64,000 nt of DNA, taken from Acidobacteriota bacterium. GTDB taxonomy: Bacteria > Actinomycetota > AC-67. The translations under genes were made by a program, and so were the position numbers. The notes under the pieces are model-generated. The model ran no database searches and was not told where the DNA came from. It saw nothing but the letters and a program-made list of their open reading frames with translations. Each line of letters begins with the position of its first letter. The stretch's first letter is position 1. Below are positions 32,192 through 64,000 of this stretch, piece by piece. Location: assembly GCA_016208485.1 (NCBI GenBank), contig JACQXY010000061.1, positions 14,330 through 78,329 on the forward strand, read 5' to 3'.

Positions 32192-32198
32192 CGAGATC

Positions 32199-34538
32199 CT
32201 ACGCCGCGGCGGCGCGCTCGGAGCGGATGCTCACCCCTCCCCCACCGTCGACTCCGACCGTCACGTCCCCCGACAGGTCAGTCCGGTAGACGCGCATGCC
32301 GGCGGCGGCGAGGGCCTCCAGGGCCGGGCGCGAGGGGTGCCCGTACTCGTTCGGCCCGACCGAGATGACCGCGACGCCGGCCCGCGTCGCCGCGTAGAAC
32401 TCCGGCAGCATGTGCCTCGACCCGTGGTGGGACACCTTCAGGACGGTCGCGCGCAACCGATCCGGGCGCGCGAGGAGCGGCTCCATCCCCTCTTCCTGCA
32501 CGTCGGCGGTGAGCATGAGCGCATCCGAGCCGTACGTCACACGCAGCACGAGCGAGTTGTTGTTGGAGTCGCTGCCGCTTCCGGCGACGAGCGGCTCCGA
32601 CGGACCGAGGACCTCGATCGTCGCGGCGCCGAGCGCGAGCGTCATCCCCGCGCGCCCGATCACCCGGCGGATCCCCCGGCGCGCGAGCGCCGCGATCGCC
32701 GCCCGGTACGCGGAGTGCCCTTCCTCATCCAGGCCGGAATCGAGCGCGATCCCGATCGGGTAGCGCTCGGCGACCGGGACGAGGCCGTCCACGTGATCGG
32801 CGTCCGGATGCGAGAGGGCGAGGATGTCGAGCCGGCGCACCCCCGCGCGCCGGAGCCTCGCGAGGAGCCGTGCGGGGTCGGGCCCGCCGTCGAGGAGCAT
32901 CGTCGCGCCGCCCGGATCGCGCACGAGGAGCGCATCCCCCTGCCCGATGTCGAGAGCCGTCAGGCTGAGACCCCGCGGCGGAGGCGGGGCGACGGCGCGG
33001 CCCCACGCCATGCCGGCGGCGAGCAGCGCCAGGGCGAGCGCCAAGGGCGCAGCCCGGCGCAGCCGCACCGCGCCGAGCCCCACCAGGGCGAGCGCCAGCG
33101 CGACGCCCGCGCCGGCGATCCCGGCCGGCGTGCCGACAGAGGCGTAGGGAACCCCCGCGAGGACGTGGGCGGTGCCGGCCATCCATGCGAGAGCCGGACG
33201 AGTCAGCACAACGAGCGAGCCTGCCGGCGCCCAGACCGCGCCGGCGCCCGCCCCGAGGAGCCCGAGCACCGTCGCCGGCGCGACGGCCGGCGCCGCGAGC
33301 AGGTTCGCCGGCAGCGCGACCAGAGAGACCTGGTGGAAAGTCAGCGCGAGCAGAGGCGTCACGGCGGCCTGAGCGCCGAGCGTGACGGCTGCGGCCGCGC
33401 CGAGCTTGCCGCGCGGCAGCGCACGCGCGAGACGCGGCGCGACAGCGAGGATCCCGAACGTGGCGAGCGCCGAGAGCTGGAACCCGGCGGAGCGGACGAG
33501 GAACGGGTCGTAGACGAGGAGGACGAGCGAGGCGGCACCCAGGCCGGCGAGGGCCTCCCGGCGAGCCCCGACCGCCGCGCCGGCGAGCGCGAGCCCGGCC
33601 ATCGCCCCGGCGCGGAGCACGCTCGGCTCGAACTGCGTGACGGCCATGAAGGAGAGCAGCGCCGCCGCGAGCGCAGCGAGAGTGGCGCGCGGACCCGCGC
33701 CGGCGCGCCGCAGGCCGAACCCCACCGCTCCGAGCACCATGGCCACGTTCGCGCCGCTCACCGCCAAGAGGTGAGTGAGCCCGGTCGCGCGGAAGTCGAG
33801 CCCGATCTCCGGGTCGAGGGTCGAGTCGTCCCCGATGGTCACGCCGAGATACAGGCCCCGGTAACGCTCCGGAAGCCTCCCCGCCTGCCTGCGGACCGCG
33901 TCGCGGCCGGCGCGCGCGATGCGGGTGAGCGGGCTCGCCGAGCGCCCGGCGCGAACGATCCCGTCCGCGCGGGCGTACGCGCGCGCCGCGACCCCCTTCC
34001 AGCGCAGGCGCGCCGCAGCGCGCTGGATCGCCACGGCCGCGCCGGGGCGCTCGACCGGGGCGAGCCTCGCGTCGAGCCGCACCCGGTCCCCCGGCCGCGG
34101 CGGGCGCCGCAGCGGCGGCCGCACCGACACCCAGGCACGCTCGCGGACGGCGAACGGGCGCCGGTCGATCTCCGCGCGCGAGACCCCGAGGAGGAACCAC
34201 GTCCCCCGGGAATCAGACTCCGGCTCGGCGAGGACGGTCCCATCCAGGAGTGCGTCGGCCCCGCGCGCCGCGCCGGCCGCGAGCGCCGATCCGTCGAGGC
34301 TCGCCAGCCGCAGATCGGCGAGGGCGAGCCCGAGGAGGCCGGCGGCGAGGAGCAGCGCCCAGGCGGAGGCCGGCCGGTGGCGCGCGGCGATCGCGACGCC
34401 GAGCGCGCACGCGGCGAGCGCGGCGCACACCCCCCACGGCGGGCGAACGGAGCCGGCGGCGAGCGCCCCGGTCGACAGCGCCCCGGCGAGAGCGAGGAGC
34501 CGGAGGGCCGGCTCGGGTCCCGGCTGCCGGGCTTCCAT
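32199..34538 (-). CDS. comEC: DNA internalization competence protein ComEC/Rec2 with C-terminal metallo-beta-lactamase domain
   Basis: 779 aa, multi-TM competence domain plus MBL motifs (LDIGQGDALLV…ILALSHPDADHVDGL); start abuts comEA stop. Confidence 0.8.
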   Translation of the reverse strand: MEARQPGPEPALRLLALAGALSTGALAAGSVRPPWGVCAALAACALGVAIAARHRPASAWALLLAAGLLGLALADLRLASLDGSALAAGAARGADALLDGTVLAEPESDSRGTWFLLGVSRAEIDRRPFAVRERAWVSVRPPLRRPPRPGDRVRLDARLAPVERPGAAVAIQRAAARLRWKGVAARAYARADGIVRAGRSASPLTRIARAGRDAVRRQAGRLPERYRGLYLGVTIGDDSTLDPEIGLDFRATGLTHLLAVSGANVAMVLGAVGFGLRRAGAGPRATLAALAAALLSFMAVTQFEPSVLRAGAMAGLALAGAAVGARREALAGLGAASLVLLVYDPFLVRSAGFQLSALATFGILAVAPRLARALPRGKLGAAAAVTLGAQAAVTPLLALTFHQVSLVALPANLLAAPAVAPATVLGLLGAGAGAVWAPAGSLVVLTRPALAWMAGTAHVLAGVPYASVGTPAGIAGAGVALALALVGLGAVRLRRAAPLALALALLAAGMAWGRAVAPPPPRGLSLTALDIGQGDALLVRDPGGATMLLDGGPDPARLLARLRRAGVRRLDILALSHPDADHVDGLVPVAERYPIGIALDSGLDEEGHSAYRAAIAALARRGIRRVIGRAGMTLALGAATIEVLGPSEPLVAGSGSDSNNNSLVLRVTYGSDALMLTADVQEEGMEPLLARPDRLRATVLKVSHHGSRHMLPEFYAATRAGVAVISVGPNEYGHPSRPALEALAAAGMRVYRTDLSGDVTVGVDGGGGVSIRSERAAAA

Positions 34539-35255
34539 CTAGACGGTGACGTAGGGCTCGAGCGAGGAGAACTTCTTCTCCCCGATCCCCTCGACCTTCA
34601 GCAGGTCGCGCACGCTCCGGAACGGGCCGTGCTGGGTCCGGTACTCCACGATCCGCTGGGCGAGCACGGGACCGACGCCGGGGAGCCCCTCGAGGTCGCG
34701 CTCGCTCGCGGCGTTGATGTTGAGCTTGCCGCCGCTCGCGGCACCCCCCGACCCACCGCCGTCCGCCGCCGCGCCGTTGGGCGGGACCTCCCCGCGCCGG
34801 GGCACGTAGATCCGCTCCCCGTCGGCGAGCGGGCGCGCGAGGTTGATCGAGTCGACATCGGCGCCGGGCGCCGGACCTCCGGCGCGGCGCACCGCGTCGA
34901 TGACGCGCGCGCCGGGAGCGAACTCGTAGACTCCCGGGCGCCTCACCGCTCCGGCGACGTGCACCACGATGCGCTCCCCGGCCGCGGCGGAGGCCGACGG
35001 CGCCGCGGAAGGCGCCACGGCGGGGACCGCAGCGGCCCCGAGCGCGGCCGGGCGAGCGCGCGCGAAGGCGACGAGCGCCCCCGAGAGGATGAGCCCGCCG
35101 AGGACCGCGAGCGCGACCGTCTCGCGAGGCCGGAACTCGAGCATGCGAGCCGCGCGAACCCACCACGGAACGGCGAGTCCGCTGCGGCCCCGGTCCTGTG
35201 CGCGCTCGCTCAGCATCTGGCCGGGGAAGGATCGATGGACGCGCGACGCTACCAC
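34539..35255 (-). CDS. comEA: competence protein ComEA (helix-hairpin-helix DNA-binding)
   Basis: C-terminus LNINAASERDLEGLPGVGPVLAQRIVEYRTQHGPFRSVRDLLKVEGIGEKKFSSL = tandem HhH; N-terminal TM; exact start uncertain (alternatives 35216, 35144). Confidence 0.7.
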   Translation of the reverse strand: MVASRVHRSFPGQMLSERAQDRGRSGLAVPWWVRAARMLEFRPRETVALAVLGGLILSGALVAFARARPAALGAAAVPAVAPSAAPSASAAAGERIVVHVAGAVRRPGVYEFAPGARVIDAVRRAGGPAPGADVDSINLARPLADGERIYVPRRGEVPPNGAAADGGGSGGAASGGKLNINAASERDLEGLPGVGPVLAQRIVEYRTQHGPFRSVRDLLKVEGIGEKKFSSLEPYVTV

Positions 35256-35324
35256 GCCGGGCGCGCCCGGCCACGTCCGGGAGAAGCGCGCGGAACGGCG
35301 CGAACGCGCCGGACGGACCGGCGC

Positions 35325-36284
35325 TCAGCTCGGCCCGCGCGCGCCCCGGTGCCGGCGCGTCGAGGCGTGGGCCTCGTCTCCGTGCGCCTCCCAGGGATCG
35401 AGGTGAACGTCCACCTGGGCGACGCCGGGCAGCTCGTGCAAGATCCGGTGGTGGACGGTCTCCGCCACCTCGTGCGCTCGCGCGAGCGGCAGGCGCCCGT
35501 CGACCGCCACCGTCAAGGTGACGTAGAGCGAGCGGCCCGCCCAGCGGGCCTGGCAGCGCCCGACCGAGGCGACGCTCGGAGTGCCTCCCGCCACAAGGCG
35601 GATGCGCTCGACGATCTCCGGGTCGACCGCGTCGAGCAGTCGAGCCAGGACCTGGCGGCCGGCGCCCCAGGCGATCGACCCGATCGCGAGCGTGATCACG
35701 AACCCGGCGATCGGGTCGGCGGCGCGAAACCCGAACCGCGCGCCCAGCAAACCGAGGAACGCCGCGACCGAGGCGAGCGCGTCGGTGCGCGCGTGCTGAC
35801 CGTCGGCCACGAGCGGCTCGCTCCCGATGCGGCGCCCGACCCGGATCTTGTACCGCGCGACCACCTCGTTGCCGATCCCTCCCACGAGCGCCGCGGCCAT
35901 CGCCCAGCCGACGAACGCGACCTCGTGCCCTCCGGTGAGCTTGCGGTAGGACTCGAGGGCGGCGTAGCCCGCGCTCGTCCAGATCACGAGCACCACGCCC
36001 ACTCCGGCGAGGTCCTCCAGGCGCTGGTAGCCGAACGTGTAGCGGTGATCCGCGGCCCGGCGCGCGGCCGTGAACGCCACCGCAAGGATCACCGTCGTGA
36101 CGATGTCCCCGATGTTGTCGAGGAGATCTGCAAGCAGGGCGGCGCTCCCGGAGATCGCCACGACGACGGCCTGGAAGACGGCCGTGAGCACGAGCGCAAC
36201 CGCGGAGATCCGGATCGCGCGCAGACCCTCGCGCGTGCCCTCCGGTCCGGCAACGGCAGCGACCCTGTGCGAATCGCCCGACAT
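35325..36284 (-). CDS. cation diffusion facilitator (CDF) family metal efflux transporter
   Basis: Cation_efflux TM domain plus C-terminal ZT_dimer; His-rich tail (HLDPWEAHGDEAH). Confidence 0.8.
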   Translation of the reverse strand: MSGDSHRVAAVAGPEGTREGLRAIRISAVALVLTAVFQAVVVAISGSAALLADLLDNIGDIVTTVILAVAFTAARRAADHRYTFGYQRLEDLAGVGVVLVIWTSAGYAALESYRKLTGGHEVAFVGWAMAAALVGGIGNEVVARYKIRVGRRIGSEPLVADGQHARTDALASVAAFLGLLGARFGFRAADPIAGFVITLAIGSIAWGAGRQVLARLLDAVDPEIVERIRLVAGGTPSVASVGRCQARWAGRSLYVTLTVAVDGRLPLARAHEVAETVHHRILHELPGVAQVDVHLDPWEAHGDEAHASTRRHRGARGPS

Positions 36285-36342
36285 GGTCCCCCCAGGCTAC
36301 GCCGCGCGCGCCCGGTCGCGAGCGCGCGCCGGACCCACCTCG

Positions 36343-38859
36343 CTACCGGACGACGATGTTGACGAGCCGCGGCGGGACGACGACCGTGCGCACGATCTGT
36401 CTCCCACCAAGGTGCGCTCCCACCTTGTCGGAGCCGAGGGCCAACTCCCTCATCCGCTCCTCGGAGACGGCGGCCGGCACCTCGATCCGGTCGCGCACCT
36501 TGCCGTTCACCTGGACCACCATCGTGTGCGTGTCCACGCGCACGAGCGCGGGGTCGACCTGGGGCCACCCGCCCCGGTGGATGCCGGGCTCCCGGCCGAG
36601 GCGGCGCCAGAGAGCCTCGCAGGCGAACGGCGCCATCGGGGCGAGCATGCGCAGGATCGCGTCGAGCGCCTCTCGCACGTCCTCGCCGGACGACCGCGGG
36701 GCGAGGTCGCCGCTCTCGTTCACGAGCGTCATGAGCTTCGCGATCGCGGTGTTGAAACGGAACCGCTCGTAGTCCTCGGTAACTCCGGCGACGGCGCGGT
36801 GGGTCGCCCGCCGCAAGTCGGAGGCGCCGGAGGGCGCGCCGGCCGACCCGGCGCGCGCGGCGTTGTCGAGCGCGAGGCGCCACACCCGCCCGAGCCACTT
36901 GTTCGACCCGGCGATCGAGCAGTCCGCCCAGTCGACGTCGTCCTCGACCGGCCCGGCGAAGAGAAGCGTGATCCGGAGCGCGTCGGCCCCCCAGCGCTCG
37001 ATGGTCGGCATCAGGTCCACGGCGTTGCCGCGCGACTTCGACATCGCCCCCTTCTCGCCGTTCAGGACCATCCCCTGGTTGAGGAGGTTCGGGAACGGCT
37101 CGGCGAAACCGACGAGCCCGAGATCGTGGAGCACCTTGGTGAAGAAGCGCGAGTAGAGCAGGTGAAGGATCGCGTGCTCGATCCCGCCGGTGTACTGGGC
37201 GACCGGCATCCAGCGCCGCACGGCCTCCGGGTCCACGGCCCGCTCCGGGTCGAGCGCGCAGTAGCGGAAGTAGTACCAGGACGAGTCCACGAACGTATCC
37301 ATCGTGTCGGTCTCGCGGCGCGCGGCGGCGCCGCATCGCGGGCAGGCCGCGCTCACCCACTCCTCCACCTTCGCGAGCGGGGACTCGCCGGTCTCGGCCG
37401 GCGTGAGGTCGTCCATCTCGGGGAGAAGCACCGGCAGCTCGCGCTCGGGGACCGGCACCTCGCCGCAATCCCGGCAGTGCACGATCGGGATCGGGCAGCC
37501 CCAGTAGCGCTGGCGCGAGATGAGCCAATCCCTCAGCCGGTAGCTCACCCTGCCCGTTCCGATGCCCTTCTCCTCGAGCCACCGCGTGACGGCGGCCTTG
37601 CCGCGCTCGGCCGGCGTTCCGTCGAACTCGCCCGAGCCGACCATCACCCCCGGGCCGTCGTAGGCCTCCGCCATCGTGTCGCCGTCGAGAGTCCCGTCCC
37701 CGGGGGCGATGACGACCCGGACCGGGATTCCCTCCTGGCGCGCGAACTCGAAGTCTCGCTGGTCGTGCGCCGGCACCGCCATGATCGCCCCGGTCCCGTA
37801 CTCCATGAGCACGTAGTCGGCGACCCAGATCGGGACCGGCTCGCCGTTCACCGGGTTGCGCGCGTGCGCCCCGAGGAACATCCCCTCCCGGCGGCGCCCG
37901 GTCGCGACGCGCTCGATCTCGGTCCGGCGGCGGACGCGCTCGAGGAAGGTCTCGAACTCCGCGCGCAGGCCCGCCCGCTCGGCGAGGCCGGCCGCCATGG
38001 GATGCTCCGGCGCGAGCACGAAGAAGGTCACGCCCCAGAGCGTGTCGGGGCGCGTGGTGAAGATCGGAACCTCCTCGCCCGTCTCGGCGACCGCGAAGGC
38101 GACTTCGGCTCCCTCGCTCCGGCCGATCCAGTTCCGCTGCATCGCGAGCACGCGGTCGCTCCAGCCGCCGAGCAGGGACATGTCCTCGAGGAGCCGGTCG
38201 GCGTAGGCGGTGATCCGGAGGAACCACTGCACCAGGTCGCGCTTGGTCACCACCGCGTCGCAGCGCTCGCAGAGGCCGCCCACCACCTGCTCGTTCGCGA
38301 GCACCGTGCGGCACGACGGGCACCAGTTGACCGCCGCGCCCTTGCGGTATGCGAGCCCACGCTCGAGGAACTTGAGGAATAGCCACTGCGTCCAGCGGTA
38401 GTACTCCGGATCGCAGGTGTTGAACGCGCGCGACCAGTCGAAGGACACGCCGAAGCGCTTGAAGGTCGCCGTCTGGGTCGCGATGTTGGAGTAGGTCCAC
38501 TCGCGCGGGTGGATCCCCCGCTTGATCGCGGCGTTCTCCGCCGGCAGCCCGAACGCGTCGAAGCCGATCGGGTGGAGCACGTCGTGGCCGCGCGCCCAAT
38601 GGAACCGCGCGATGGCATCCCCGATCGCCCACGCCTCGGCGTGGCCGACGTGCAGGTCCCCCGACGGGTACGGGAACATGTCGAGCGCGTACCTCGGGCT
38701 CTTCGGGGCCTCCGGCGCCGCGAAAGCGTTCTGGCGCGCCCACTCCTCGGAGAGAGGCGGCTCGACCGCGCCGGGGTCGTAGCGCTCGCGCTCGCCGGCC
38801 GCGCTCCGGCCCGAGGCCGAAGCGCGCGCGGATGCCTCCGATGCCGTCTCGCCCGTCAT
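36343..38859 (-). CDS. leuS: leucine--tRNA ligase
   Basis: …YALDMFPYPSGDLHVGHAE… HIGH motif, KMSKS (AMSKSRGN), 838 aa. Confidence 0.9.
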   Translation of the reverse strand: MTGETASEASARASASGRSAAGERERYDPGAVEPPLSEEWARQNAFAAPEAPKSPRYALDMFPYPSGDLHVGHAEAWAIGDAIARFHWARGHDVLHPIGFDAFGLPAENAAIKRGIHPREWTYSNIATQTATFKRFGVSFDWSRAFNTCDPEYYRWTQWLFLKFLERGLAYRKGAAVNWCPSCRTVLANEQVVGGLCERCDAVVTKRDLVQWFLRITAYADRLLEDMSLLGGWSDRVLAMQRNWIGRSEGAEVAFAVAETGEEVPIFTTRPDTLWGVTFFVLAPEHPMAAGLAERAGLRAEFETFLERVRRRTEIERVATGRRREGMFLGAHARNPVNGEPVPIWVADYVLMEYGTGAIMAVPAHDQRDFEFARQEGIPVRVVIAPGDGTLDGDTMAEAYDGPGVMVGSGEFDGTPAERGKAAVTRWLEEKGIGTGRVSYRLRDWLISRQRYWGCPIPIVHCRDCGEVPVPERELPVLLPEMDDLTPAETGESPLAKVEEWVSAACPRCGAAARRETDTMDTFVDSSWYYFRYCALDPERAVDPEAVRRWMPVAQYTGGIEHAILHLLYSRFFTKVLHDLGLVGFAEPFPNLLNQGMVLNGEKGAMSKSRGNAVDLMPTIERWGADALRITLLFAGPVEDDVDWADCSIAGSNKWLGRVWRLALDNAARAGSAGAPSGASDLRRATHRAVAGVTEDYERFRFNTAIAKLMTLVNESGDLAPRSSGEDVREALDAILRMLAPMAPFACEALWRRLGREPGIHRGGWPQVDPALVRVDTHTMVVQVNGKVRDRIEVPAAVSEERMRELALGSDKVGAHLGGRQIVRTVVVPPRLVNIVVR

Positions 38860-54866: not shown

Positions 54867-54910
54867 CCGCGCCCGTGCAGAGACTATCGCAGATGCCGGA
54901 ACCTCGTGAT

Positions 54911-54926
54911 ACATGGTATACTATGT
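54911..54926. promoter_or_regulatory. vapBC promoter/operator: 16-bp near-palindrome ACATgGTATACtATGT containing -10 TATACT
   Basis: Seen in sequence; 14/16 symmetric around GTATAC; strongly AT-rich in a GC-rich context; vapB ATG lies 1-7 nt downstream (likely leaderless). Confidence 0.35.
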
Positions 54927-55165
54927 GCATGTTCACGGAGCGCACGCAGGTCTTGCTGAGCCCCGAGCAGCGGCGCGCCCTCGAGCGGCTGGCAAAGCGC
55001 CGCAAGGCCTCGGTCGGCGCCGTCGTCAGAGATGCCATCGAGGCCTACCTGACCCCGGGGGCCGGATCGAGATCGAAGGCGCTCGAGGCGCTTCTCGCGA
55101 TCGAGGCCCCCGTGGCGGACTGGGAGATCATGAAGGCCGAGATCGAGCAGGGAGCGCTCTCCTGA
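54923..55165 (+). CDS. vapB: ribbon-helix-helix antitoxin (VapB/CopG-like)
   Basis: M(CM)[43 protein letters not shown] fold signature; alternative ATG at 54929. Confidence 0.65.
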
Positions 55166-55596
55166 CGGTCTTCATCGACACCGCCCTGCCGATGTACGCG
55201 GCGGGCCGGGAGCACCCGTTGCGCGAGCCCTGCCGGGAGATCCTCGGACTCGCGGCGGCGGGGCGGCTTCCGGCCGTCACCTCCGCCGAGGTCGTCCGGG
55301 AGATCCTCCACCGGTTCGCGCACATCGGACGGCGCGACCTGGGGGCGGCGCTCGCCTCGGCGACCCTGGACCTCTTCGCTCCCGTCTTGCCGGTCACCCA
55401 CCGGATCGTGCAGCGCACGGCGGCCCTGGTCGAGCGATGCCCGCGCCTCTCCGCCCGCGATCTCGTGCACGTCGCCACGTGCCTGGAGGAAGGGATCGGG
55501 GCGATCGTGAGCCCCGACACGGGCTTCGACGAGGTCGGCGCGATCAGGCGGATCCCACCCGGGGACCGCAAGCTCCTGGCGCGCTACCTCCGGTAG
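55162..55596 (+). CDS. vapC: PIN-domain toxin VapC
   Basis: …[15 protein letters not shown]…VTSAEVVREILH…DLVHVATCLEEGIGAIVSPDTGFD with conserved PIN acidic residues; no canonical ATG/GTG/TTG upstream of the first conserved Asp so the start (CTG at 55162?) is uncertain. Confidence 0.6.
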   Translation: MTVFIDTALPMYAAGREHPLREPCREILGLAAAGRLPAVTSAEVVREILHRFAHIGRRDLGAALASATLDLFAPVLPVTHRIVQRTAALVERCPRLSARDLVHVATCLEEGIGAIVSPDTGFDEVGAIRRIPPGDRKLLARYLR

Positions 55597-55678
55597 AGTG
55601 TCCGAACCATCGCGTACATTGTTCTCCGGTCTATCTGCCGACTTGGGGTGCTTGATGGACGCTGCGGAGGGAAGCCGG

Positions 55679-58600
55679 ATGCGGTTCAGCCCCGGCCAGA
55701 TCCTCACCGGCCCTCTTTTCAACGAGCCGATGCGGGTCGAGAACGTGCAGGCCGGCGGCCAAGCAAGCTGGGTGGTGGGGCTCGTCGGCCTGCACTCCGA
55801 GCGCTTCCGCAAGGTGACCCTCAGCCCAGACGACGTCGAGCAACTGACGATCCTCGACGCGCGGCACTCATACGCGGGGGATGGACGGCTTCTGCGCCTC
55901 GGCCTCCAGGCATACGCCCTAGGAATCGCCTACGAATTCGACCCCTACTTTGGACTCTCTATCTCGCGCGTAGATCCGCTGCCGCACCAGCTCGAAGCCG
56001 TCTACGACTACCTGCTCAGGCTGGCGCGGGTGCGGTTCCTGCTCGCGGATGACGCCGGGGCCGGGAAGACCATCATGGCAGGGCTGCTGGTCCGAGAGCT
56101 CGAGCTCCGGGGTCTAGCCGAGCGCATCCTGATCGTCTGCCCGGCAAACCTTGCTTTCCAGTGGCAGCGCGAGCTGAAGGAGAAGTTCGATACCACGTTT
56201 CTCGTGATGAAGGGCCAAGACATCCGAGACCAGTTCGGCATGAACCAGTGGCTAGAACGGGACCGCGTCATCACGTCGCTCGACTTGGCGAAGCGCGAGG
56301 ACATCTTGCCGGGACTGCGCCAAGTCCACTGGGACCTTGTCATCGTGGACGAGGCCCATCGAATGTCGGCTGCCGACGAGTCGCACAAGAGCATGCGCTA
56401 CCGGCTCGGCGAGCTGCTGCGCGACGTCTCCGATCACATGCTCCTTCTCACGGCCACTCCGCACAAGGGCGACCCGCAGAACTTCAGTCTGTTTCTCCAG
56501 CTCCTCGACGCGGACGCCTACGCCGACGTGAAGTCGATCCGCGAGGCGATGGACCGCCGGCGGGCGCCCTTCTACTTGCGCCGCACCAAGGAAGCGATGG
56601 TCTACTTCCCCGAGCGGCGGCCGGACGGCTCCTGGGCTGCCGAGAAGATCTTCACCAAGCGAATCCCGCACACGGTGGACTTTCTGATCGACGGTGCGGA
56701 GTTCGATCTCTACCGCGAGGTGACGCGCTTTGTGAAGCGCGAGAGTGCCCGCGCGGCGGCCGAGGGCGAGGATCCCCGCGCTCGGGCGATCGGCTTCCTG
56801 ATGTCCCTCTACCAGCGCCGGCTCGCCTCGAGCACGTACGCGATGAAGCGATCACTCGAGAATCGCGCCCGACGCCTTGAAGACGGGCTCAAGCGCGCGC
56901 AGGACCTTGCCCGCCAAGCGCCGCCGGATATCCCCGATCCGGACGAGCTGGACGAGATGGAGGAAGGTGAGAGGGAGCAACTCGAGGCCATGATCGAGGC
57001 GATCACTCTCGCGGGAAACGCCGACCAAGTGCGCCAGGAGGTCCAGGAGCTGCGGCGGCTCGCCGCGCAGGCCCAAGCCGTGGTGGACGCGGGAGTAGAG
57101 GCCAAGCTTTCGGAGCTGAAGGATCTGCTCCAAGAAGAGGGCTTCTTCGATCATCCTGACCAGCGCTTGCTCCTGTTCACCGAGTTCAAGGACACCCTCG
57201 ACTACCTCGTGGAGCGCCTGGAGTCCTGGGGCTTCCGGGTCGGCTGCATCCACGGGGGCATGAAACCTGGCTCGCGCAACGAGCCCGGCACGCGCTTGTA
57301 CGCCGAGCAGCAGTTCCGTGAGGGCGAGATCCAGATCCTCGTCGCGACCGAGGCCGCGGGCGAGGGGATCAACCTGCAGGTCTGCAACATCCTCTTCAAC
57401 TACGACATCCCGTGGAACCCGAACCGTCTCGAGCAACGGATGGGCCGCATCCACCGTTACGGCCAGCGCAAGGATTGCTTGATCTTCAACTTCGTGGCGA
57501 CGAACACGATCGAAGGCCGCGTCCTCCAGCGGCTGCTCGAGAAACTCCAGGAGATCCGCGACGCGCTCGACGACGATGCGGTTTTCAACGTGGTCGGCGA
57601 GATTCTGCCGGCCGCCCACGTCGAACGCGTGCTGCGCGACTACTACGCCGGACGCCTCGGAGACGCCGACCTCGAGGAGCGCCTGCTCCGCGACGTGGAT
57701 GAGGGGCAATTCCGGGCCATCTGCCAGAACGCCTTAGAGGGACTGGCGAGCAAGAGGCTCAACCTGGAGATGCTGATCGAGCGTCGCGCGCGGGCACAAG
57801 AGCAACGCGTTGTTCCTGAGACCATCGCCCGATTCATGCGTGAAGCATCCGAGTTCGTGCCGCTCAGCCTGAGGATGGTTCCCAGCCTTGCCCACACCTT
57901 CGAGCCTGCCCGAACGCCCTCCGTTCTACGGCGCCACGAGAAGGACCCGGACTGGAAACTCCCGGCTCTCGCCGACCGCTATCCGCGCTGCTCCACCGAC
58001 CGGGAGACGGCAGAGACCCAGAAGCTGGAGTGGGTCACGCCCGGCCATCCACTATTCGAGGCGATCCGGCGCCACACGCACGCACGGGCGCTGGACGCCC
58101 TCGGCCAAGGTGCGACGTTCCATTCGCTCCAGCATGAACGTCCGGCGCGCATCGACTTCTATCGCGCCCGGGCAGTGGACGGACTCGGACAGGTCGTCCA
58201 TGAGCGGCTCTTCGCCGTGGAGATCGACGAGGACTCGGAGCCTCGGCTCCAAGAGCCCAGCTTGCTCGGGAACTTCGCGCCCGCAATCGCGCCGGCCGAG
58301 ATGCCTGCGGTGGCCGCCCTTCCAGAAGCGACGGCCTGGCTCCACGAACAGGCGCTGGCGCCGTTCCTCGACGAGACGCGGCAGGACCGCATGTCCGAGG
58401 TTGAGCGGATCGCCGCGCACGTCGAGCTGTCGCTGACGGAATTGCTCCAGCGTGCCGACGAGGAGATCGGCCGTTCGGCCTCAGACGTCGAGCAGAAGCT
58501 CGCCGGTGCCGAAGGGCGGCTCGCCATGGCGGAAACGCGTCACGCGGAACTGCTCACGCGACGCGATCGACGCCGGACCGATCTTGAGCACCAGCGTTCG

Positions 58601-59101
58601 CTGACCCTCCAAGCGGTTGAGCGGCTCGCGAGCGTCCTCATCTTGCCGCACCCCGAACGCGAGGCGCCCGATGTGCGACGCCTCAGGCCGAACTTCGAAA
58701 CCGAGGCCACCGCCATGCGCGTGGTGATGGAACATGAGCGGGCGCAGGGTCGTCAGGTCTACGACGTCTCCAAGAAGAACCTGGGCTACGACATCACGAG
58801 CCTCGACCTTGCCTCCGGTGAGTTGCGCCTCATCGAGGTCAAGGGCCTCGGCGCGGCGACCGGCACGATCCTGCTGACGCCCAACGAGCGGCGCGTCGCA
58901 GAGGATCGACCCGACTGCTTCTGGCTCTACGTCGTCACCGACTGCGACAATGCTCCGCGACTCCAGGAGCCGATCCGCGATCCGGCGCGGCTCGACTGGA
59001 ACGAAGTGCGAAAGGTGGCGCACTACTACCTCTCGGTGAACGCGATGACGAAACCCATGCAGGTGCGCGAAGAGCCGTTGCCGTACGGGAAGGCCCCCTG
59101 A
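55679..59101 (+). CDS. SNF2-family helicase (DEXDc + HELICc) with long coiled-coil linker and C-terminal DUF3883 restriction-endonuclease-like domain
   Basis: ATG with SD GGAGGGAAG (alternative upstream GTG 55598/ATG 55655); motifs LLADDAGAGKT (I), DLVIVDEAHR (II), LLLTATPHKG (III), …ILVATEAAGEGINLQ…QRMGRIHRYGQ (V/VI); C-terminus …RLIEVKGLGAATGTILLTPNERRVAEDRPDCFWLYVVTDC…. Confidence 0.75.
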   Translation: MRFSPGQILTGPLFNEPMRVENVQAGGQASWVVGLVGLHSERFRKVTLSPDDVEQLTILDARHSYAGDGRLLRLGLQAYALGIAYEFDPYFGLSISRVDPLPHQLEAVYDYLLRLARVRFLLADDAGAGKTIMAGLLVRELELRGLAERILIVCPANLAFQWQRELKEKFDTTFLVMKGQDIRDQFGMNQWLERDRVITSLDLAKREDILPGLRQVHWDLVIVDEAHRMSAADESHKSMRYRLGELLRDVSDHMLLLTATPHKGDPQNFSLFLQLLDADAYADVKSIREAMDRRRAPFYLRRTKEAMVYFPERRPDGSWAAEKIFTKRIPHTVDFLIDGAEFDLYREVTRFVKRESARAAAEGEDPRARAIGFLMSLYQRRLASSTYAMKRSLENRARRLEDGLKRAQDLARQAPPDIPDPDELDEMEEGEREQLEAMIEAITLAGNADQVRQEVQELRRLAAQAQAVVDAGVEAKLSELKDLLQEEGFFDHPDQRLLLFTEFKDTLDYLVERLESWGFRVGCIHGGMKPGSRNEPGTRLYAEQQFREGEIQILVATEAAGEGINLQVCNILFNYDIPWNPNRLEQRMGRIHRYGQRKDCLIFNFVATNTIEGRVLQRLLEKLQEIRDALDDDAVFNVVGEILPAAHVERVLRDYYAGRLGDADLEERLLRDVDEGQFRAICQNALEGLASKRLNLEMLIERRARAQEQRVVPETIARFMREASEFVPLSLRMVPSLAHTFEPARTPSVLRRHEKDPDWKLPALADRYPRCSTDRETAETQKLEWVTPGHPLFEAIRRHTHARALDALGQGATFHSLQHERPARIDFYRARAVDGLGQVVHERLFAVEIDEDSEPRLQEPSLLGNFAPAIAPAEMPAVAALPEATAWLHEQALAPFLDETRQDRMSEVERIAAHVELSLTELLQRADEEIGRSASDVEQKLAGAEGRLAMAETRHAELLTRRDRRRTDLEHQRSLTLQAVERLASVLILPHPEREAPDVRRLRPNFETEATAMRVVMEHERAQGRQVYDVSKKNLGYDITSLDLASGELRLIEVKGLGAATGTILLTPNERRVAEDRPDCFWLYVVTDCDNAPRLQEPIRDPARLDWNEVRKVAHYYLSVNAMTKPMQVREEPLPYGKAP

Positions 59102-59117
59102 TGGCGGAACGGATCCG

Positions 59118-60602
59118 ATGAGCGAGCGCATCTTCGTGAGCAGCGTGCAGAAGGAACTGGAGGCCGAGCGACGGGCCGTGCGGGCCTTCGTTCGCGGGGA
59201 TGCGCTGCTGCGGCGGTTCTTCGATGTCTTTCTCTTCGAAGACCTCGCGGCATCCGATCGGCGGGCGGACGATGTGTACCTCGACGAGGTGGGACGCTGC
59301 GCCGTCTACCTCGGACTTCTCGGCGACGAGTACGGCAGCGAGGACGCGGCGGGGGCATCGCCGACTGAGCGCGAGTTCGACCACGCCACAGCCCTGGGCA
59401 AGACGCGCCTCGTCTTCGTCAGGGGCGTTGACCACGACGGCCGGCATCCGAAGATGCGCGCTCTGGCCGCCAAGGCCGGAGCGCAGCTTATCCGCAGGCG
59501 TTTCAGCGGGATTTCAGACCTCACCGCGGCCCTCTACGCCAGCCTCGTCGAGCATCTGGAGCGGACGGGCAGGCTTAGCACGCGGCCCTTCGACGCTGCG
59601 GCCTGTCCGGACGCCACGTTGGAGGACGTCTCGCCCCAGAAGATGGAATGGTTCATCGGCATCGCCCGCCGCGAGCGGCAGTATCCTCTCCGCGAGGCTA
59701 CACCGCCGGTCGAGGCTCTGGCCCACCTGAACCTGCTCGACGCAGGCCAGCCGACCCGCGCAGCCGTCCTCCTATTCGGGCGGGAGCCGCAACGCTTTCT
59801 CCTCAGCTCCGAGATCAAGTGCCTGCACTTCCACGGCACCGAGGTGCGCAAGCCCATCCCGTCGTACCAGGTGTACAACGGAACCGTGTTCGAGTTGGTG
59901 GACCAGGCGGCGGACTTCGTCATGTCCAAGATCGCCCGGGCCGTCGGCACCCGCGCCCACGGCCCGGAGGCACCTGTCGAGTACGAGCTGCCCCGAGAGG
60001 CCGTGGTCGAGGCCATCGTGAACGCCGTCGCACACCGCGACTACACGAGCAACGCCAGTGCGCAGGTGATGCTCTTCGCGGACCGGCTGGAGGTCTGGAA
60101 CCCCGGAGAACTCCCCCCCACCCTGACGCTGCCGCAGTTGCGCATACCGCATCCCTCCATTCCCCACAACCCGCTCATCAGCGAGCCGCTCTTCCTTGCC
60201 CGGTACATCGAACGAGCCGGCACCGGCACACTGGACATGATCGCCCGGTGCCGGGAAATGGGCTTGCCCGAACCGGAGTTCCGGCAGGACGGTGGACAGT
60301 TCGTCATGACCTTGTGGCGCGACTGGCTCACGGAGGAAGTTCTGGCCTCCCTGGCACTGAATGAACGCCAGGAGAAGGCGGTCGGCTTCATCCGGCGAGA
60401 AGGCCGCCTGACCAACCTCCAGTACCAGGAGATCACGGGCGCGAGCCGGGCCACCGCGAAGCGGGACCTCGAGGAGCTTATGGGCAAGGGTGTGCTAGTC
60501 CGCATGGGCACCGGGCGCGCTGCCCATTATCTGGTTGCGAAGAAACGGCTCAAGAAAGGCTCAAATGGCTCACCGGAGGGTGCGGACGGAAATGGCTCAT
60601 AA
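59118..60602 (+). CDS. fusion protein DUF4062 + Schlafen/AlbA_2 divergent-ATPase + HATPase_c_4 + C-terminal wHTH (RecG-C-terminal-like 'transcriptional regulator' family)
   Basis: N-terminus MSERIFVSSVQKELEAERRAVRAFVRG matches DUF4062 start consensus; middle …AAVLLFGREPQRFLLSSEIKCLHFHG… (AlbA_2); …PLISEPLFLARYIERAGTGTLDMIARCREMGLPEPEF (HATPase_c_4); C-terminal HTH; TAA stop. Confidence 0.6.
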   Translation: MSERIFVSSVQKELEAERRAVRAFVRGDALLRRFFDVFLFEDLAASDRRADDVYLDEVGRCAVYLGLLGDEYGSEDAAGASPTEREFDHATALGKTRLVFVRGVDHDGRHPKMRALAAKAGAQLIRRRFSGISDLTAALYASLVEHLERTGRLSTRPFDAAACPDATLEDVSPQKMEWFIGIARRERQYPLREATPPVEALAHLNLLDAGQPTRAAVLLFGREPQRFLLSSEIKCLHFHGTEVRKPIPSYQVYNGTVFELVDQAADFVMSKIARAVGTRAHGPEAPVEYELPREAVVEAIVNAVAHRDYTSNASAQVMLFADRLEVWNPGELPPTLTLPQLRIPHPSIPHNPLISEPLFLARYIERAGTGTLDMIARCREMGLPEPEFRQDGGQFVMTLWRDWLTEEVLASLALNERQEKAVGFIRREGRLTNLQYQEITGASRATAKRDLEELMGKGVLVRMGTGRAAHYLVAKKRLKKGSNGSPEGADGNGS

Positions 60603-60662
60603 GTGGCTCAAACGGCTCACGCGGCCCGAACCCCGAAACCAACCCGACGAGGGCGACGCGAG

Positions 60663-60797
60663 ATGATCCCCAAGGAGTGCAAGCGCCTGGCTGAGGTGGA
60701 CTTCCCGATTGCCGAGGCGCCGCGGCATGCGGCGTGGGAGAAGTCGATCCGGCAGGGACATCCGAGCGCACCTGCCTCGAGAACTCAGACCCCATGA
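60663..60797 (+). pseudogene. duplicated 5' fragment (~35 codons) of the DUF1156 methyltransferase gene; short ORF whose stop overlaps the DUF3644 start
   Basis: 60663-60767 is ~89% identical at DNA level to 61867-61971 (protein MIPKECKRLAEVDFPIAEAPRHAAWEKSIRQGHPS vs MIPKECKRLAEVDFPIAEVSRHAAREKSIRHGHPS); homology ends ~nt 105 and the ORF terminates with TGA overlapping ATG 60794. Confidence 0.5.
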
Positions 60798-61870
60798 GAG
60801 GGCTGCCCTACGACGTCAAGGCGCTCGTCGAGAAGGCGAGGGAGACCGCCCTGCTCGCAGTGGAGACCTACAACCGCCCCACGGCGAGCTTCCGGTCAGG
60901 CGCGTACGTAGTCCTGATGATCATCGCTTGGACGTCGCTCTTTCACGCGATGTTCCTTCGCAAGGGAATCAAGCCGTACTGCCGAAAGCCCGGCTCAAGA
61001 CGGTACGAGCGGATCGATGGTGAGCCTCGGCGCTGGGAGCTCGGAGAGTGCCTGCGGCAACACTACAAGGCGAGTAACCCTGCCACCCGGCGGAATCTCG
61101 AGTTCTTCATTGGGCTCCGCAACAAGATCGAGCATCGTTCGCTTGCGCAGATCGACCCAGAAGTCTTCGGCGAATGCCAAGCGATGTTGCTGAACTTCGA
61201 GTCCCTGCTCGTTTCGGAGTTTGGTGATCGGTACGCGATTCGTGGCGGTCTCACGTTCGCCTTGCAGTTCTCACGGGTCGTTCCGACGAGTTCATCGGCG
61301 CCGGCCGCCAATACTGCTGGTAGAGCGTTCAAGGCGATCAAGCAATACGTGGACGCCTTCCGGTCAAGTCTGAGCGCGGACGTGCAGAACGACCTGGCCT
61401 ACAGCTTCAAGGTCTTCCTCGTTCCGAAGATCGGCAATCACGCGAGCAAGGACTCGGTTGCCGTGGAATGGATCAAATACCATCCCTCGAAGCCTGAGGA
61501 GATGAGGCACTACGAGAAGGTAGTGGCGATGATCAAGCCCAAGGAGGTGCAGATCGCGAATCTGGGCCGCCTAAAGCCGACGCAAGTCGCGCGGCAAGTT
61601 GCGGTCAAGCTCGGCAGGCGGTTCACGAATTACGACCACAAGCTTTGCTACGAGCATTTCACGATCCGGCCGCCAGGTGGGGCACCCGATCCGTCGGCAT
61701 GCAACCCTCAGTTCTGTGTCTACGACGATCTCCACAAGGACTACTGCTACACGCCGCAGTGGGTTGACTTCCTTGGGGAGAGACTGGCTGATCCTGCGCT
61801 CTACGCGAACATCATCACGAGAAGGAAGGCCACCGCGAAACCCATTGAAACCAGGAGCGCAACCGCATGA
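60794..61870 (+). CDS. DUF3644-family (HEPN-like, MAE_28990/MAE_18760-type) protein
   Basis: MRGLPYDVKALVEKARETALLAVETYNRPTASFRSGAYVVLMIIAWTSLFHAMFLRKGIKPYCR… matches my recollection of the DUF3644 N-terminal consensus; lower GC (~58%); ATGA overlaps at both ends. Confidence 0.55.
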   Translation: MRGLPYDVKALVEKARETALLAVETYNRPTASFRSGAYVVLMIIAWTSLFHAMFLRKGIKPYCRKPGSRRYERIDGEPRRWELGECLRQHYKASNPATRRNLEFFIGLRNKIEHRSLAQIDPEVFGECQAMLLNFESLLVSEFGDRYAIRGGLTFALQFSRVVPTSSSAPAANTAGRAFKAIKQYVDAFRSSLSADVQNDLAYSFKVFLVPKIGNHASKDSVAVEWIKYHPSKPEEMRHYEKVVAMIKPKEVQIANLGRLKPTQVARQVAVKLGRRFTNYDHKLCYEHFTIRPPGGAPDPSACNPQFCVYDDLHKDYCYTPQWVDFLGERLADPALYANIITRRKATAKPIETRSATA

Positions 61871-64000
61871 TCCCGAAGGAGTGCAAGCGCCTTGCCGAGG
61901 TGGACTTCCCGATCGCCGAGGTGTCGCGGCACGCGGCGCGGGAGAAGTCGATCCGGCACGGGCACCCGAGCACGCTGCACCTGTGGTGGGCCCGGCGGCC
62001 GCTGGCGTCGAGCCGCGCGGTGCTGCTGGGGCTACTCTGGCCGGATCCATGCGATCCGCTGTGCCCGCCAGAGTTCAAGGCGAAGGCTCGAGAGTTGCTG
62101 CCGCGGGTGCAGGGCGGGGGCGCGCCAGGCCCAACTAACAATGATCTACGGCAATCGCTGCTCAAGTTTATCGGTGCGTTTGCGAACTGGGACCTTGCCG
62201 CGAACGGCGTTTACCTGGAGGTCAGCCGCGCCCTGGTGAAGGCGGCGCACGGCGAGGAGCCACCGCTGGTCGTGGATCCGTTCGCGGGGGGCCGATCGAT
62301 CCCGTTGGAGGCTCTGCGGCTTGGCTGCGATGCCTTCGCGAGCGACTTGAACCCCGTCGCCTGCCTGATCCTCAAGGTGATGCTCGAGGACATCCCGCGC
62401 CACGGGCCGAAGCTCGCCGAGGAGCTGCGCCGCGTCGGGACGGAGATCAAACGGCAGGCGGAGAAGGAGTTGGCGGATCTCTACCCCAAGGATCCGGACG
62501 GCGCGACGCCGATCGCCTACCTCTGGGCGCGGACCGTGCGCTGCGAGTCGCCGAACTGCGGCGCGGAGATCCCGCTCGTGCGCTCGTTCTGGCTCTGCAA
62601 GAAGGCGAACCGCCGGCGGGCGCTCAGGCACCGCGTCGTGCGGCCCGCGGGCGAGCCGCCGCGCGTCGAGTTCGAGATAGTCGAGCCGAAGGCTGAGGAG
62701 GAGGTGCCCGGCGGGACGGTGACGCGCGCGAAGGCCACGTGCGTCGCGTGCGGCGCGGTGCTCCCGCCCGAGCGCGTGCGGCCGCAGCTCGCGGCACAGC
62801 GCGGCGGGGCCGACGTCGTCTTCGGCGCCGAGGGCCTACGCACGGCCGGGGCGAGGATGCTGGCCGTTGTGACGCTCCGGCCCGACGAGCAGGGACGGCA
62901 CTATCGGCTGTCAACCGAGCGCGACTACGAGGGCACCCGCAACGCGCAGGAGCGGCTCGCGGCGATCCTCGGCGCGTGGGAGCGTGACGGAAAGATGGGC
63001 CTCCGCCCGGTGCCGGATGAGCCGCTGCCGCCGATCGGCACGCTCGGCTTTCGCGTGCAGCGGTACGGCATGCTCCAGTGGGGCGACCTCTTCACGGCGC
63101 GGCAGAAGACTGCGCTGGTCACGTTGTCGGTGCGGATGGCCCGAGAGAACGGAGACGTCATTGAGGCAATGGCGTCTTCTCTTTCGAGACTTGCGGACAA
63201 GAACGCATCACTCGCAGTCTGGAATCAGATCGGCGAGAAGATTGAGCACGTCTTCGGGCGTCAGGCACTCCCAATCGTCTGGGACTTCGCAGAGGTGCCC
63301 ATATTTTCGAACTCTACCGGTAATTTCGGCAGCGGTGTCGATCTCGTCCGAAAAGTGTTAGAGGCTTGGCCTGGCTCACTTGCAGGGCAAGTTCAACTCG
63401 CTGACGCTACCGAGCACCCACTCCCCGACCAGACCGCAACCGTCTGGTTCACCGACCCGCCCTATTACGATGCGGTCCCGTACGCCGACCTCTCGGACTT
63501 CTTCTTCGTCTGGCTGAAGCGCGCGCTACCGGGACGAGCAGTCTTGCGCGATCCGTTCGATCCGGCCAACCCGCTTTCCCCCAAACGGCGCGAAGCCGTG
63601 CAGGACGAGACGAAACGAGACAACGGTCGGTCGAAGGACCGAGCGTGGTTCGAGGAGACGATGGCCCGTGCCTTCGCCGAAGGCCGACGGGTACTGCGAG
63701 AGGACGGCGTGGGCTCCGTGGTTTTTGCCCACAAGACGACGGAAGGCTGGGAAGCGCTCCTCTCCGGGATGATTCGGGGCGGCTGGACGATCACCGGCTC
63801 GTGGCCCATCGCCACGGAGCGCCCCGGGCGACTGCGCGCACAGGAGTCTGCCGCCCTCGCCACCAGCGTCCACCTCATCTGCCGCCCCCGCCCTGTGGAT
63901 GCAGGCGTCGGTGACTGGGCCGACGTTCTGCGCGAGCTGCCGAACCGCGTCGGCGACTGGATGGAGCGCCTGCAGGGCGAAGGTATTCGCGGCGCCGACC
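61867..64000 (+). CDS. DUF1156-domain N6-adenine DNA methyltransferase with Zn-ribbon (COG1743 family), 3' end beyond window
   Basis: Open frame from ATG 61867 to the window end; N-terminal DUF1156 (…HGHPSTLHLWWARRP…VDPFAGGRSIPLEALRLGCDAFASDLNP = SAM-binding motif I), CxxC…CxxC Zn-ribbon (CESPNCG…CVACG), catalytic motif IV DPPY (VWFTDPPYYD). Confidence 0.75.
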   Translation, partial: MIPKECKRLAEVDFPIAEVSRHAAREKSIRHGHPSTLHLWWARRPLASSRAVLLGLLWPDPCDPLCPPEFKAKARELLPRVQGGGAPGPTNNDLRQSLLKFIGAFANWDLAANGVYLEVSRALVKAAHGEEPPLVVDPFAGGRSIPLEALRLGCDAFASDLNPVACLILKVMLEDIPRHGPKLAEELRRVGTEIKRQAEKELADLYPKDPDGATPIAYLWARTVRCESPNCGAEIPLVRSFWLCKKANRRRALRHRVVRPAGEPPRVEFEIVEPKAEEEVPGGTVTRAKATCVACGAVLPPERVRPQLAAQRGGADVVFGAEGLRTAGARMLAVVTLRPDEQGRHYRLSTERDYEGTRNAQERLAAILGAWERDGKMGLRPVPDEPLPPIGTLGFRVQRYGMLQWGDLFTARQKTALVTLSVRMARENGDVIEAMASSLSRLADKNASLAVWNQIGEKIEHVFGRQALPIVWDFAEVPIFSNSTGNFGSGVDLVRKVLEAWPGSLAGQVQLADATEHPLPDQTATVWFTDPPYYDAVPYADLSDFFFVWLKRALPGRAVLRDPFDPANPLSPKRREAVQDETKRDNGRSKDRAWFEETMARAFAEGRRVLREDGVGSVVFAHKTTEGWEALLSGMIRGGWTITGSWPIATERPGRLRAQESAALATSVHLICRPRPVDAGVGDWADVLRELPNRVGDWMERLQGEGIRGAD

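Follow-up and report, generated by a model that had tools for sequence, protein, structure and literature searches.

Which defence system do the genes at the end of this locus encode, and what are the two genes lodged between its helicase and its methyltransferase? Within the 64,000-nucleotide stretch of DNA analysed here (the window), plus-strand genes are packed tightly between 54,923 and the window end (64,000), and our analysis indicates that they very probably contain an Hma (helicase-methylase-ATPase) system with two self-contained cargo defences in the slot between hmaA and hmaB. A sequence-only reading had counted five consecutive plus-strand genes; there are six, together with a 44-aa remnant ORF. 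The same reading placed this island downstream of proA, and the identity of proA was correct (NF001221, 608 bits), but proA lies on the minus strand and is divergently transcribed from vapB; in transcriptional terms the island therefore does not lie downstream of it.

Analysis of the two core genes revealed the hallmarks of Hma. hmaA (55598..59101, plus strand) encodes an SNF2 helicase with a C-terminal NOV_C/DUF3883 PD-(D/E)xK nuclease and matches the PADLOC HmaA profile (8.5e-174) over its full length, residues 69-1114 aligning to profile positions 45-1131 of 1176. In agreement with its initial description as an SNF2/DUF3883 helicase, Pfam found SNF2-rel_dom, Helicase_C and NOV_C (formerly DUF3883) in this one protein. 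HmaA is 1,167 aa long, or 1,140 aa from ATG 55679, which is likely the true start; the Logan gene call is also 1,140 aa. Its motifs are intact (GAGKT154, DEAH251, QRMGRIHR613, D1065 and E1080-V-K1082). hmaB (61867..64000, plus strand, open at the window end) encodes a DUF1156 N6-adenine DNA methyltransferase (PADLOC HmaB 8.8e-107; Pfam DUF1156 1.4e-21), cut at residue 711 by the window end, as the sequence-only reading had it. The window covers the first 711 of its 1,000 codons, and the gene is predicted to end near 64,869, the full length of 1,000 aa being taken from the 100%-identical NCBI protein MBI4730023.1; motifs DPFAG137 and DPPY530 are intact.

These features recall the system named Hma (PMC8565338), also described as a type-1 DUF499-centred BREX-related system (PMC12839542). 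As in Hma, an SNF2+NOV_C helicase-nuclease and a DUF1156 N6-adenine methylase are encoded in the same order on the same strand, with other genes embedded between them, and the D/E/K nuclease residues are kept. These residues, together with the HmaA helicase, are needed for defence against T4 (PMC11232893), on which HmaB had no effect (Liu et al., PMC11232893). The locus differs from described Hma systems in that HmaC is not in the window, which ends inside hmaB, and in its particular pair of embedded genes, which the main texts of the Hma papers do not name. Any hmaC of the source locus would fall past 64,000.

To place the locus among its relatives, we used a comparison set of 80 related loci from a genome scan. 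The A-B-C gene order is kept across this set, the third gene being HmaC/DUF499 (5.9e-94), and of the 55 loci whose sequence runs 7 kb or more past hmaB, 54 carry a DUF499 HmaC after hmaB. This retention in close relatives, and the full-length hmaA and hmaB with intact motifs, argue against an incomplete or decaying system in which only hmaA and hmaB remain, HmaC has been lost and the locus is kept as a landing pad for cargo. Such decay would fit the lack of HmaC within the window, the reported absence of hmaC from 19% of hmaA loci (Liu et al., PMC11232893) and the hmaB' remnant described below, a sign of past rearrangement; we nevertheless regard it as quite improbable here.

Hma had initially been proposed alongside DISARM class 1, and the profile scores separate the two. 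Under a DISARM assignment the helicase would be DrmD, the methylase DrmMI, and DrmA, DrmB and DrmC would lie past the window. The resemblance is real: in both, a modification-type defence locus combines an adenine methylase with a helicase of the SNF2 family, PADLOC DrmD profiles match the helicase (1.8e-123) and DISARM_DrmD is its top NCBIfam match. However, that NCBIfam match, at 355 bits, falls below its cut-off of 610, and the DrmD matches are limited to the SNF2 core (residues 33-669 for the best PADLOC one), whereas the HmaA profile is far stronger and spans the full length, including the NOV_C nuclease. No DrmMI profile occurs among 16 PADLOC matches at E≤0.01, the best for the methylase, a DUF1156 protein, being HmaB; and the conserved downstream partner is DUF499 in 54 of 55 relatives, where DISARM would predict the DrmA/DrmB(DUF1998)/DrmC(PLD) set. 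DISARM class 1 is thus very unlikely, and an ordinary type I or type III restriction-modification system, the outcome against which the initial proposal had been set, is even harder to credit. Pfam ResIII matches the helicase (4.6e-12) and PADLOC MTase_II profiles match the methylase, but ResIII is an N-terminal domain generic to SF2 proteins, the matches listed include no model for HsdR, Res, HsdM, Mod or HsdS, and the HmaA and HmaB profile scores are far above the restriction-modification ones.

With Hma as the preferred assignment, the embedded genes find a precedent in the related loci. hmaA and hmaB are contiguous in only 4 of 63 loci, with a median gap of 2,241 nt, and the gap between hmaB and hmaC has a median of 983 nt (contiguous in only 5 of 65). 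The hmaA-hmaB junction is one of two cargo slots in Hma operons. Slot cargo in the relatives includes OLD/GajA-like proteins, AAA_21 ATPases, HEPN-MNT pairs, DUF1016 and DUF433/DUF5615. Published surveys found embedded genes in 62.7% of 1,485 Hma systems (bioRxiv 10.1101/2024.01.29.577857) and in 66.5% of Hma systems, the latter also describing an insertion hotspot (PMC11232893). Because extra defence genes between the helicase and methylase genes are a published Hma pattern, the locus is an ordinary new example of that pattern and not a new kind of system; the original suggestion of a composite or undescribed variant was right about the composite nature only.

The first cargo gene (59118..60602, plus strand) encodes a 494-aa DUF4062/NIR TIR-like protein, a predicted NADase, in which DUF4062 (residues ~1-150), with its TIR-like fold, is followed by a middle domain, HATPase_c_4 (314-399) and a wHTH (417-471). 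Across 54 homologues, E86 of the S-P-T-E-x-E-F motif is invariant and E84 nearly so. This protein had been read as a DUF4062-Schlafen fusion. The DUF4062 part stood, but SLFN_AlbA_2 (PF04326) was absent from the whole protein and from residues 151-320 (E≤1), and no Schlafen structures were among its fold matches. Plain relatives of the chassis carry AlbA_2 at residues 14-131, where DUF4062 sits here; the DUF4062/NIR domain has taken the place of Schlafen AlbA_2 and is not an addition to it. This distinguishes the protein from the SLFN_AlbA_2-HATPase_c_4-HTH family (DIP2311, PDB 3lmm), which has AlbA_2 in place of DUF4062. The chassis region also matches pAgo-associated SIR2-PNTD proteins.

DUF4062 has recently been shown to be an NADase (bioRxiv 10.64898/2026.05.01.722283,.06.25.731849,.09.04.749371). 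Like Swarozyc, Evangelion, Avs2-NIR and Vulcan/Vesta from the 2026 preprints, cargo gene 1 is a single gene whose product has an N-terminal TIR-like DUF4062 domain with a conserved acidic motif and an auxiliary region at its C terminus. The auxiliary region differs, however: it is a DIP2311-type middle domain plus HATPase_c_4 and wHTH, in contrast to the small HTH portal sensor found in KpSwz, the short AUX found in Eva01 and a STAND module. At least 120 protein clusters are 66-85% identical to the DUF4062-HATPase_c_4-wHTH protein, and PADLOC-DB 2.0.0 holds no dedicated model for its gene. Elsewhere this gene is embedded in BREX type 1, stands by itself between housekeeping genes, lies within a TIR/SbcCD island or occupies the Hma B-C slot; it is independent of Hma. 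The DUF4062-HATPase_c_4-wHTH architecture may represent a distinct, widespread single-gene NADase defence.

The second cargo gene (60794..61870, plus strand) encodes a HEPN-family protein, a predicted RNase, for which the DUF3644 assignment of the sequence-only reading was borne out (Pfam 1.6e-51; 175 bits against a Pfam cut-off of 27.6). The PADLOC candidate PDC-S19 matches it over its full length (2.6e-131), and an exact protein look-up confirmed the start at 60794. DUF3644 has been assigned to HEPN (PMC3710099), and in HEC-08, a DUF3644 HEPN defence, the histidine of the Rx4-6H motif is needed (bioRxiv 10.1101/2024.01.29.577857); the Rx4H motif here is R109-NKIE-H114. Although both are DUF3644 HEPN proteins, a PADLOC profile search gave no match of the HEC-08 profile to the protein, indicating that cargo gene 2 belongs to a different DUF3644 subfamily. 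For both the NIR-chassis and the PDC-S19 proteins, a role in defence is predicted from domain homology and guilt-by-embedding.

Could the two genes instead be dedicated accessory subunits, extra effectors triggered by this Hma variant? Both are tightly spaced or translationally coupled with the hma genes, and 'auxiliary and backup effectors' have been proposed for BREX-related systems (PMC12839542). From hmaA through cargo gene 1, hmaB' and the DUF3644 gene to hmaB, the spacings are 16, 60, -4 and -4 nt, the DUF3644 gene stop overlapping the hmaB start (ATGA), and no plus-strand terminators were found between the operon genes from hmaA to hmaB; judging by gene spacing, the hma genes and the two cargo genes are probably co-transcribed. 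Cargo, however, can be wholly different between near-identical Hma cores: the cargo of the closest relative, whose HmaB is 90% identical, consists of a Gabija-like pair and AAA_21+DUF4276. Among the 80 loci, only two have the NIR fusion, with plain AlbA_2 versions of the chassis in 14 more, and only two have DUF3644. The NIR-chassis gene also occurs without Hma genes, and DUF3644 and DUF4062 proteins act as single-gene defences in published tests. We therefore consider dedicated subunits unlikely and favour self-contained cargo.

How cargo enters the slot is suggested by the remnant ORF hmaB' (60663..60797, plus strand), the first 35 of whose 44 codons duplicate the start of hmaB. Bases 60663-60767 (105 nt) are ~90% identical to 61867-61971, in an alignment that begins exactly at the ATG, and match the opening 105 nt of hmaB in each of the other loci compared; in a tblastn comparison, hmaB' and hmaB were 86% identical over 36 aa. 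The hmaB' stop overlaps the DUF3644 ATG (ATGA). Homology with other Hma loci ends at the hmaA stop codon and restarts at the hmaB ATG, and the DUF3644-hmaB junction is common to two of the compared loci (L032 and L079). This 105-nt duplicate records how the DUF3644 gene was acquired, by recombination. Remnants of core genes facing the slots (hmaA-3', hmaB-5', hmaB-3' or hmaC-5') are present in ~16 of the 80 loci, this window included, and Hma slots may turn over via recombination anchored in core-gene ends.

The Hma copy itself was horizontally acquired. GC content of the island is 66.1% compared with 70.3% for the remaining window, below that of every 9.1-kb window elsewhere (lowest, 67.7%). 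GC3 is 0.77-0.83 in the hma and cargo genes and 0.94-0.96 in backbone genes. The drop in GC is real but modest, smaller than the ~58-63% against ~70% at first estimated: only the DUF3644 gene reaches 59%, with vapC at 74% and the other island genes at 65-69%.

At the start of the island lies a vapBC pair, recognized as such in the sequence-only reading, in which a ribbon-helix-helix vapB-like antitoxin (54923..55165, plus strand; RHH_1 1.8e-06) is followed by an overlapping vapC-like PIN toxin (55162..55596, plus strand; PIN 6.2e-12, residues 3-126 on profile positions 1-118 of 120). The vapC start overlaps the vapB stop codon by 4 nt, and because the sequence holds no ATG, GTG or TTG near the start of the PIN domain, vapC may initiate at CTG. 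By GC3 (vapB 0.90; vapC 0.945) vapBC look native; they constitute an independent adjoining toxin-antitoxin module and not an Hma component.

We propose that HmaA, which combines an SNF2 translocase and a PD-(D/E)xK nickase in one protein, acts as the restriction effector, consistent with the nickase defence in the literature, while HmaB presumably marks self DNA by N6-adenine methylation. Within a few kb beyond 64,000 we expect the DUF499 AAA+ ATPase HmaC, whose role is presumably to scan DNA or to assemble the complex. The slot cargo would supply two single-gene abortive-infection-type defences co-transcribed with Hma: the DUF4062/NIR NADase, predicted to deplete NAD+ once its HATPase_c_4-wHTH chassis senses infection, and the DUF3644 protein, a putative HEPN RNase of the kind known in defence. 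The DUF3644-hmaB block very probably came in when this locus recombined with another Hma locus. The crossover on the right would have fallen in homologous core sequence, and an illegitimate one on the left, at codon 35 of the recipient hmaB, would have left the 105-nt hmaB' behind.

Because Hma operons with embedded cargo have already been described, the locus alone changes little. Neither the DUF4062-chassis defence nor slot turnover was found in the main texts of related papers; that both hold, with the chassis proteins forming a distinct, widespread single-gene NADase defence and the slots turning over at core-gene ends, we put at slightly less than an even chance. The locus offers a clean example of an effector swap, in which an NADase stands in for Schlafen AlbA_2 while the sensor chassis is shared, and preserves a recombination scar of how one defence gene slotted into another defence system. 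Together, the swap and the scar could help to guide systematic searches for embedded cargo and for DUF4062 architectures and, if true, slot turnover anchored in core-gene ends would provide a concrete mechanism for the 'embedding' of defence genes in Hma operons.

The genes at the right-hand end of the window (54,923-64,000), a compact series on the plus strand, are best read from their profile matches as an Hma operon (helicase-methylase-ATPase; type-1 DUF499-centred, BREX-related) carrying two embedded single-gene defences and an adjoining vapBC pair, with hmaA and hmaB seen and the window ending inside hmaB. With proA on the minus strand as left neighbour (NF001221, 608 bits), the series comprises vapB (RHH_1), vapC (PIN), a large helicase (SNF2-rel_dom, Helicase_C and NOV_C, formerly DUF3883), a 494-aa protein (59118-60602; DUF4062, HATPase_c_4 and a DIP2311-like/DeoR wHTH), a DUF3644 protein (60794-61870) and a DUF1156 methylase that leaves the window at residue 711, all plus-strand and assigned with Pfam.

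The sequence-only reading had offered DISARM class 1 and Hma for the helicase-methylase pair, and its second alternative proved right: the PADLOC HmaA profile matched the helicase at 8.5e-174 (residues 69-1114 on profile positions 45-1131 of 1176), and the HmaB profile matched the methylase at 8.8e-107. DrmD profiles matched the SNF2 core of the helicase and nothing beyond it, NCBIfam DISARM_DrmD scored 355, under its curated cut-off of 610, and no DrmMI, Hsd or Mod model matched in PADLOC and NCBIfam profile searches. DISARM class 1 was thus ruled out on profile scores, and type I or type III restriction-modification on the Pfam and PADLOC profile matches. Motifs are intact in both core proteins, namely GAGKT154, DEAH251, QRMGRIHR613 and the nuclease residues D1065 and E1080-V-K1082 in HmaA, and DPFAG137 and DPPY530 in HmaB. 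The HmaA nuclease residues correspond to the D/E/K residues needed for nicking and anti-T4 defence (Liu et al., PMC11232893). The full-length methylase has 1,000 aa, as seen in an NCBI protein that is 100% identical (MBI4730023.1, protein P0001 of our comparison) and that an Acidobacteria bacterium MAG encodes on a contig of 102,116 bp; the hmaB stop would fall at about position 64,869.

A scan of species-representative genomes, followed by ORF calling and clustering, yielded at least 80 related loci from many bacterial phyla and archaea, with methylases 67-81% identical to the window HmaB and a conserved co-directional gene trio. The third trio gene, of ~926 aa, encodes HmaC/DUF499 (PADLOC 5.9e-94; Pfam DUF499). 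Since HmaC occurs in 54 of the 55 listed loci having at least 7 kb after hmaB, a DUF499 partner is very likely to lie downstream of the window's hmaB. An exact 28-mer from the window end had no match in JGI metagenomes, and the DUF3644 and DUF4062 proteins had exact matches in Logan contigs only. Two independent read-set assemblies, L001 and L002 (Logan SRR12113402 and SRR12113406), encode proteins identical to the window's, and both contigs break 96 nt into hmaB, pointing to variation between strains or to a break in the assembly there.

Core Hma proteins are highly conserved across distant taxa, HmaA being 66-88% identical to that of the window and the best 120 HmaC clusters 82-93% identical to HmaC of L084, the Dormibacteraeota locus that is the window's closest relative. 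Taxa with the core include MAGs labelled Halobacteria, Bathyarchaeia and Patescibacteria, and the apparent host range may be inflated by MAG binning of mobile islands. One locus from an Alphaproteobacteria MAG (L064, OZ251509.1) lacks both hmaA and hmaC within 10 kb of its hmaB, an orphan DUF1156 methylase gene, and is the sole such fully flanked case among the loci listed. In L079 (792-7639) a 562-aa ORF splits hmaA, and in L071 (13000-19900) a 424-aa ORF, also found elsewhere in that locus, splits hmaC, which probably reflects insertion sequences.

The two genes wedged between hmaA and hmaB are embedded cargo. Among the loci listed, the hmaA-hmaB gap has a median of 2,241 nt and a maximum of 7,888 (at most 100 nt in only 4 of 63 loci) and the hmaB-hmaC gap a median of 983 nt and a maximum of 6,659 (at most 100 nt in only 5 of 65), these slot statistics being approximate because the calls of our simple greedy ORF finder are wrong for some high-GC genes (e.g. 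in related loci L017, L043 and L057). Relatives carry in these slots OLD/GajA-like nucleases, AAA_21 ATPases (HEC-01A/PDC-M07A-like), NsnB-like ATPases, HEPN-MNT pairs, DUF433-DUF5615 pairs and DUF1016 nucleases (PDC-S02); the closest relative (a Dormibacteraeota MAG, HmaB 90% identical) has a Gabija-like pair in the first slot and AAA_21+DUF4276 in the second. Embedded genes have been reported in 931 of 1,485 Hma systems, the basis of a 'guilt-by-embedding' screen (Payne et al., bioRxiv 10.1101/2024.01.29.577857), and insertions in 66.5% of systems, in a region termed a hotspot (Liu et al., PMC11232893). Because embedding in Hma was published before, the suggestion that the locus is an undescribed variant is unsupported. 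The commonest gene of the hmaB-hmaC slot, present in 19 of the loci listed, belongs to a ~322-aa cluster (c4) that lacks a Pfam match, carries a D...EAK motif resembling a PD-(D/E)xK nuclease and usually stands alone there (e.g. L010, L011, L013, L022, L029, L032, L042, L054 and L075); rather than cargo, this may be a fourth, semi-core gene of Hma.

DUF4062, found in the first cargo gene, is a TIR-like NADase domain in the single-gene abortive-infection defences Swarozyc, Evangelion and NIR (bioRxiv 10.64898/2026.05.01.722283,.06.25.731849,.09.04.749371). The label 'Schlafen fusion' given to this gene did not hold, since Pfam found no SLFN_AlbA_2 in its protein; AlbA_2 occurs instead in plain relatives, which are common Hma cargo themselves. 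Among the loci listed, the family sharing its chassis has 16 members in 15 of 80 loci, 14 plain and 2 NIR fusions. As AlbA_2 spans residues 14-131 of the plain versions, whose only region in common with the window protein is the equivalent of its residues 213-402, DUF4062 has replaced AlbA_2 on a common chassis. Profiles for pAgo-associated SIR2-PNTD proteins match this part of the chassis as well. The window gene belongs to a large family, with the two Pfam domains present in at least 120 clusters (66-85% identity) and members in an Hma hmaB-hmaC slot and, outside Hma, within a BREX type 1 operon, alone amid housekeeping genes and in a TIR/SbcCD island; this cargo is shown to be independent of Hma. 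In L086 (3391-17488), a 77%-identical NIR-HATPase_c_4 gene copy lies between brxC and the pglX methylase of a BREX type 1 operon.

The second cargo protein matches Pfam DUF3644 at 175 bits and, over its full length, the PADLOC candidate PDC-S19 (2.6e-131), and has the motif R109-NKIE-H114. DUF3644 has been placed in the HEPN superfamily (PMC3710099), and the DUF3644 protein HEC-08 protects E. coli in a manner requiring the HEPN histidine (bioRxiv 10.1101/2024.01.29.577857). The PADLOC HEC-08 profile did not match the window protein, which thus belongs to a different subfamily, with a putative defence role.

Directly upstream of the DUF3644 gene, positions 60663-60767 hold a recombination scar, a copy of the first 105 nt of hmaB (~90% identity, starting exactly at the ATG), forming a 44-aa ORF whose end overlaps the DUF3644 start codon (ATGA). 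In comparison with other Hma loci, homology ends at the hmaA stop codon, the 105-nt remnant aligns to the hmaB start in all loci tested, and two of the related loci, L032 and L079, share the DUF3644-hmaB junction without a break. The simplest history, judged from these alignments, would be that a locus with the NIR-chassis gene between hmaA and hmaB recombined with a donor carrying DUF3644-hmaB, one crossover falling within homologous core sequence and the other, at codon 35 of hmaB in the recipient, being illegitimate. Core-gene-end fragments occur in ~16 related loci among those listed, every one from a slot-facing gene end; the text of bioRxiv 10.1101/2024.01.29.577857 makes no mention of recombination or remnants.

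The lower GC claimed for the island stood as a drop, to 66.1% compared with 70.3% in the rest of the window and a minimum of 67.7% in equally long stretches elsewhere in it, but the claimed 58-63% is true of the DUF3644 gene only. GC3 is 0.77-0.83 in the hma and cargo genes versus 0.94-0.96 in backbone genes; vapBC, at 0.90-0.945, look native. A tRNA-flanked island was ruled out, with no tRNA at 45-64 kb. No in-frame ATG, GTG or TTG lies near the PIN domain start of vapC (55120-55170), the only start candidates being a CTG at 55120 and a second CTG at 55162 that overlaps the vapB stop; the start could be non-canonical, or reflect a sequencing or assembly error. Elsewhere in the window, GC is unusually high at 31000-37000 (0.73-0.785 per kb versus ~0.70 in the backbone), and AT skew is strongly positive at 33-36 kb.

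The hma and cargo genes are probably co-transcribed, to judge by their spacings (16, 60, -4 and -4 nt) and the lack of plus-strand terminators; a scan of the island for internal terminators and promoters gave nothing above chance. From the literature, HmaA would act as a helicase-nickase in defence, DUF4062 as an NADase and DUF3644 as a HEPN defence, while HmaB may mark self DNA, HmaC may serve in scanning or assembly, and the NADase would be triggered when its chassis senses infection. Embedding in Hma is itself known, and the locus adds one further example; its modest new points are the replacement of a Schlafen domain by an NADase and the core-gene-end remnants.
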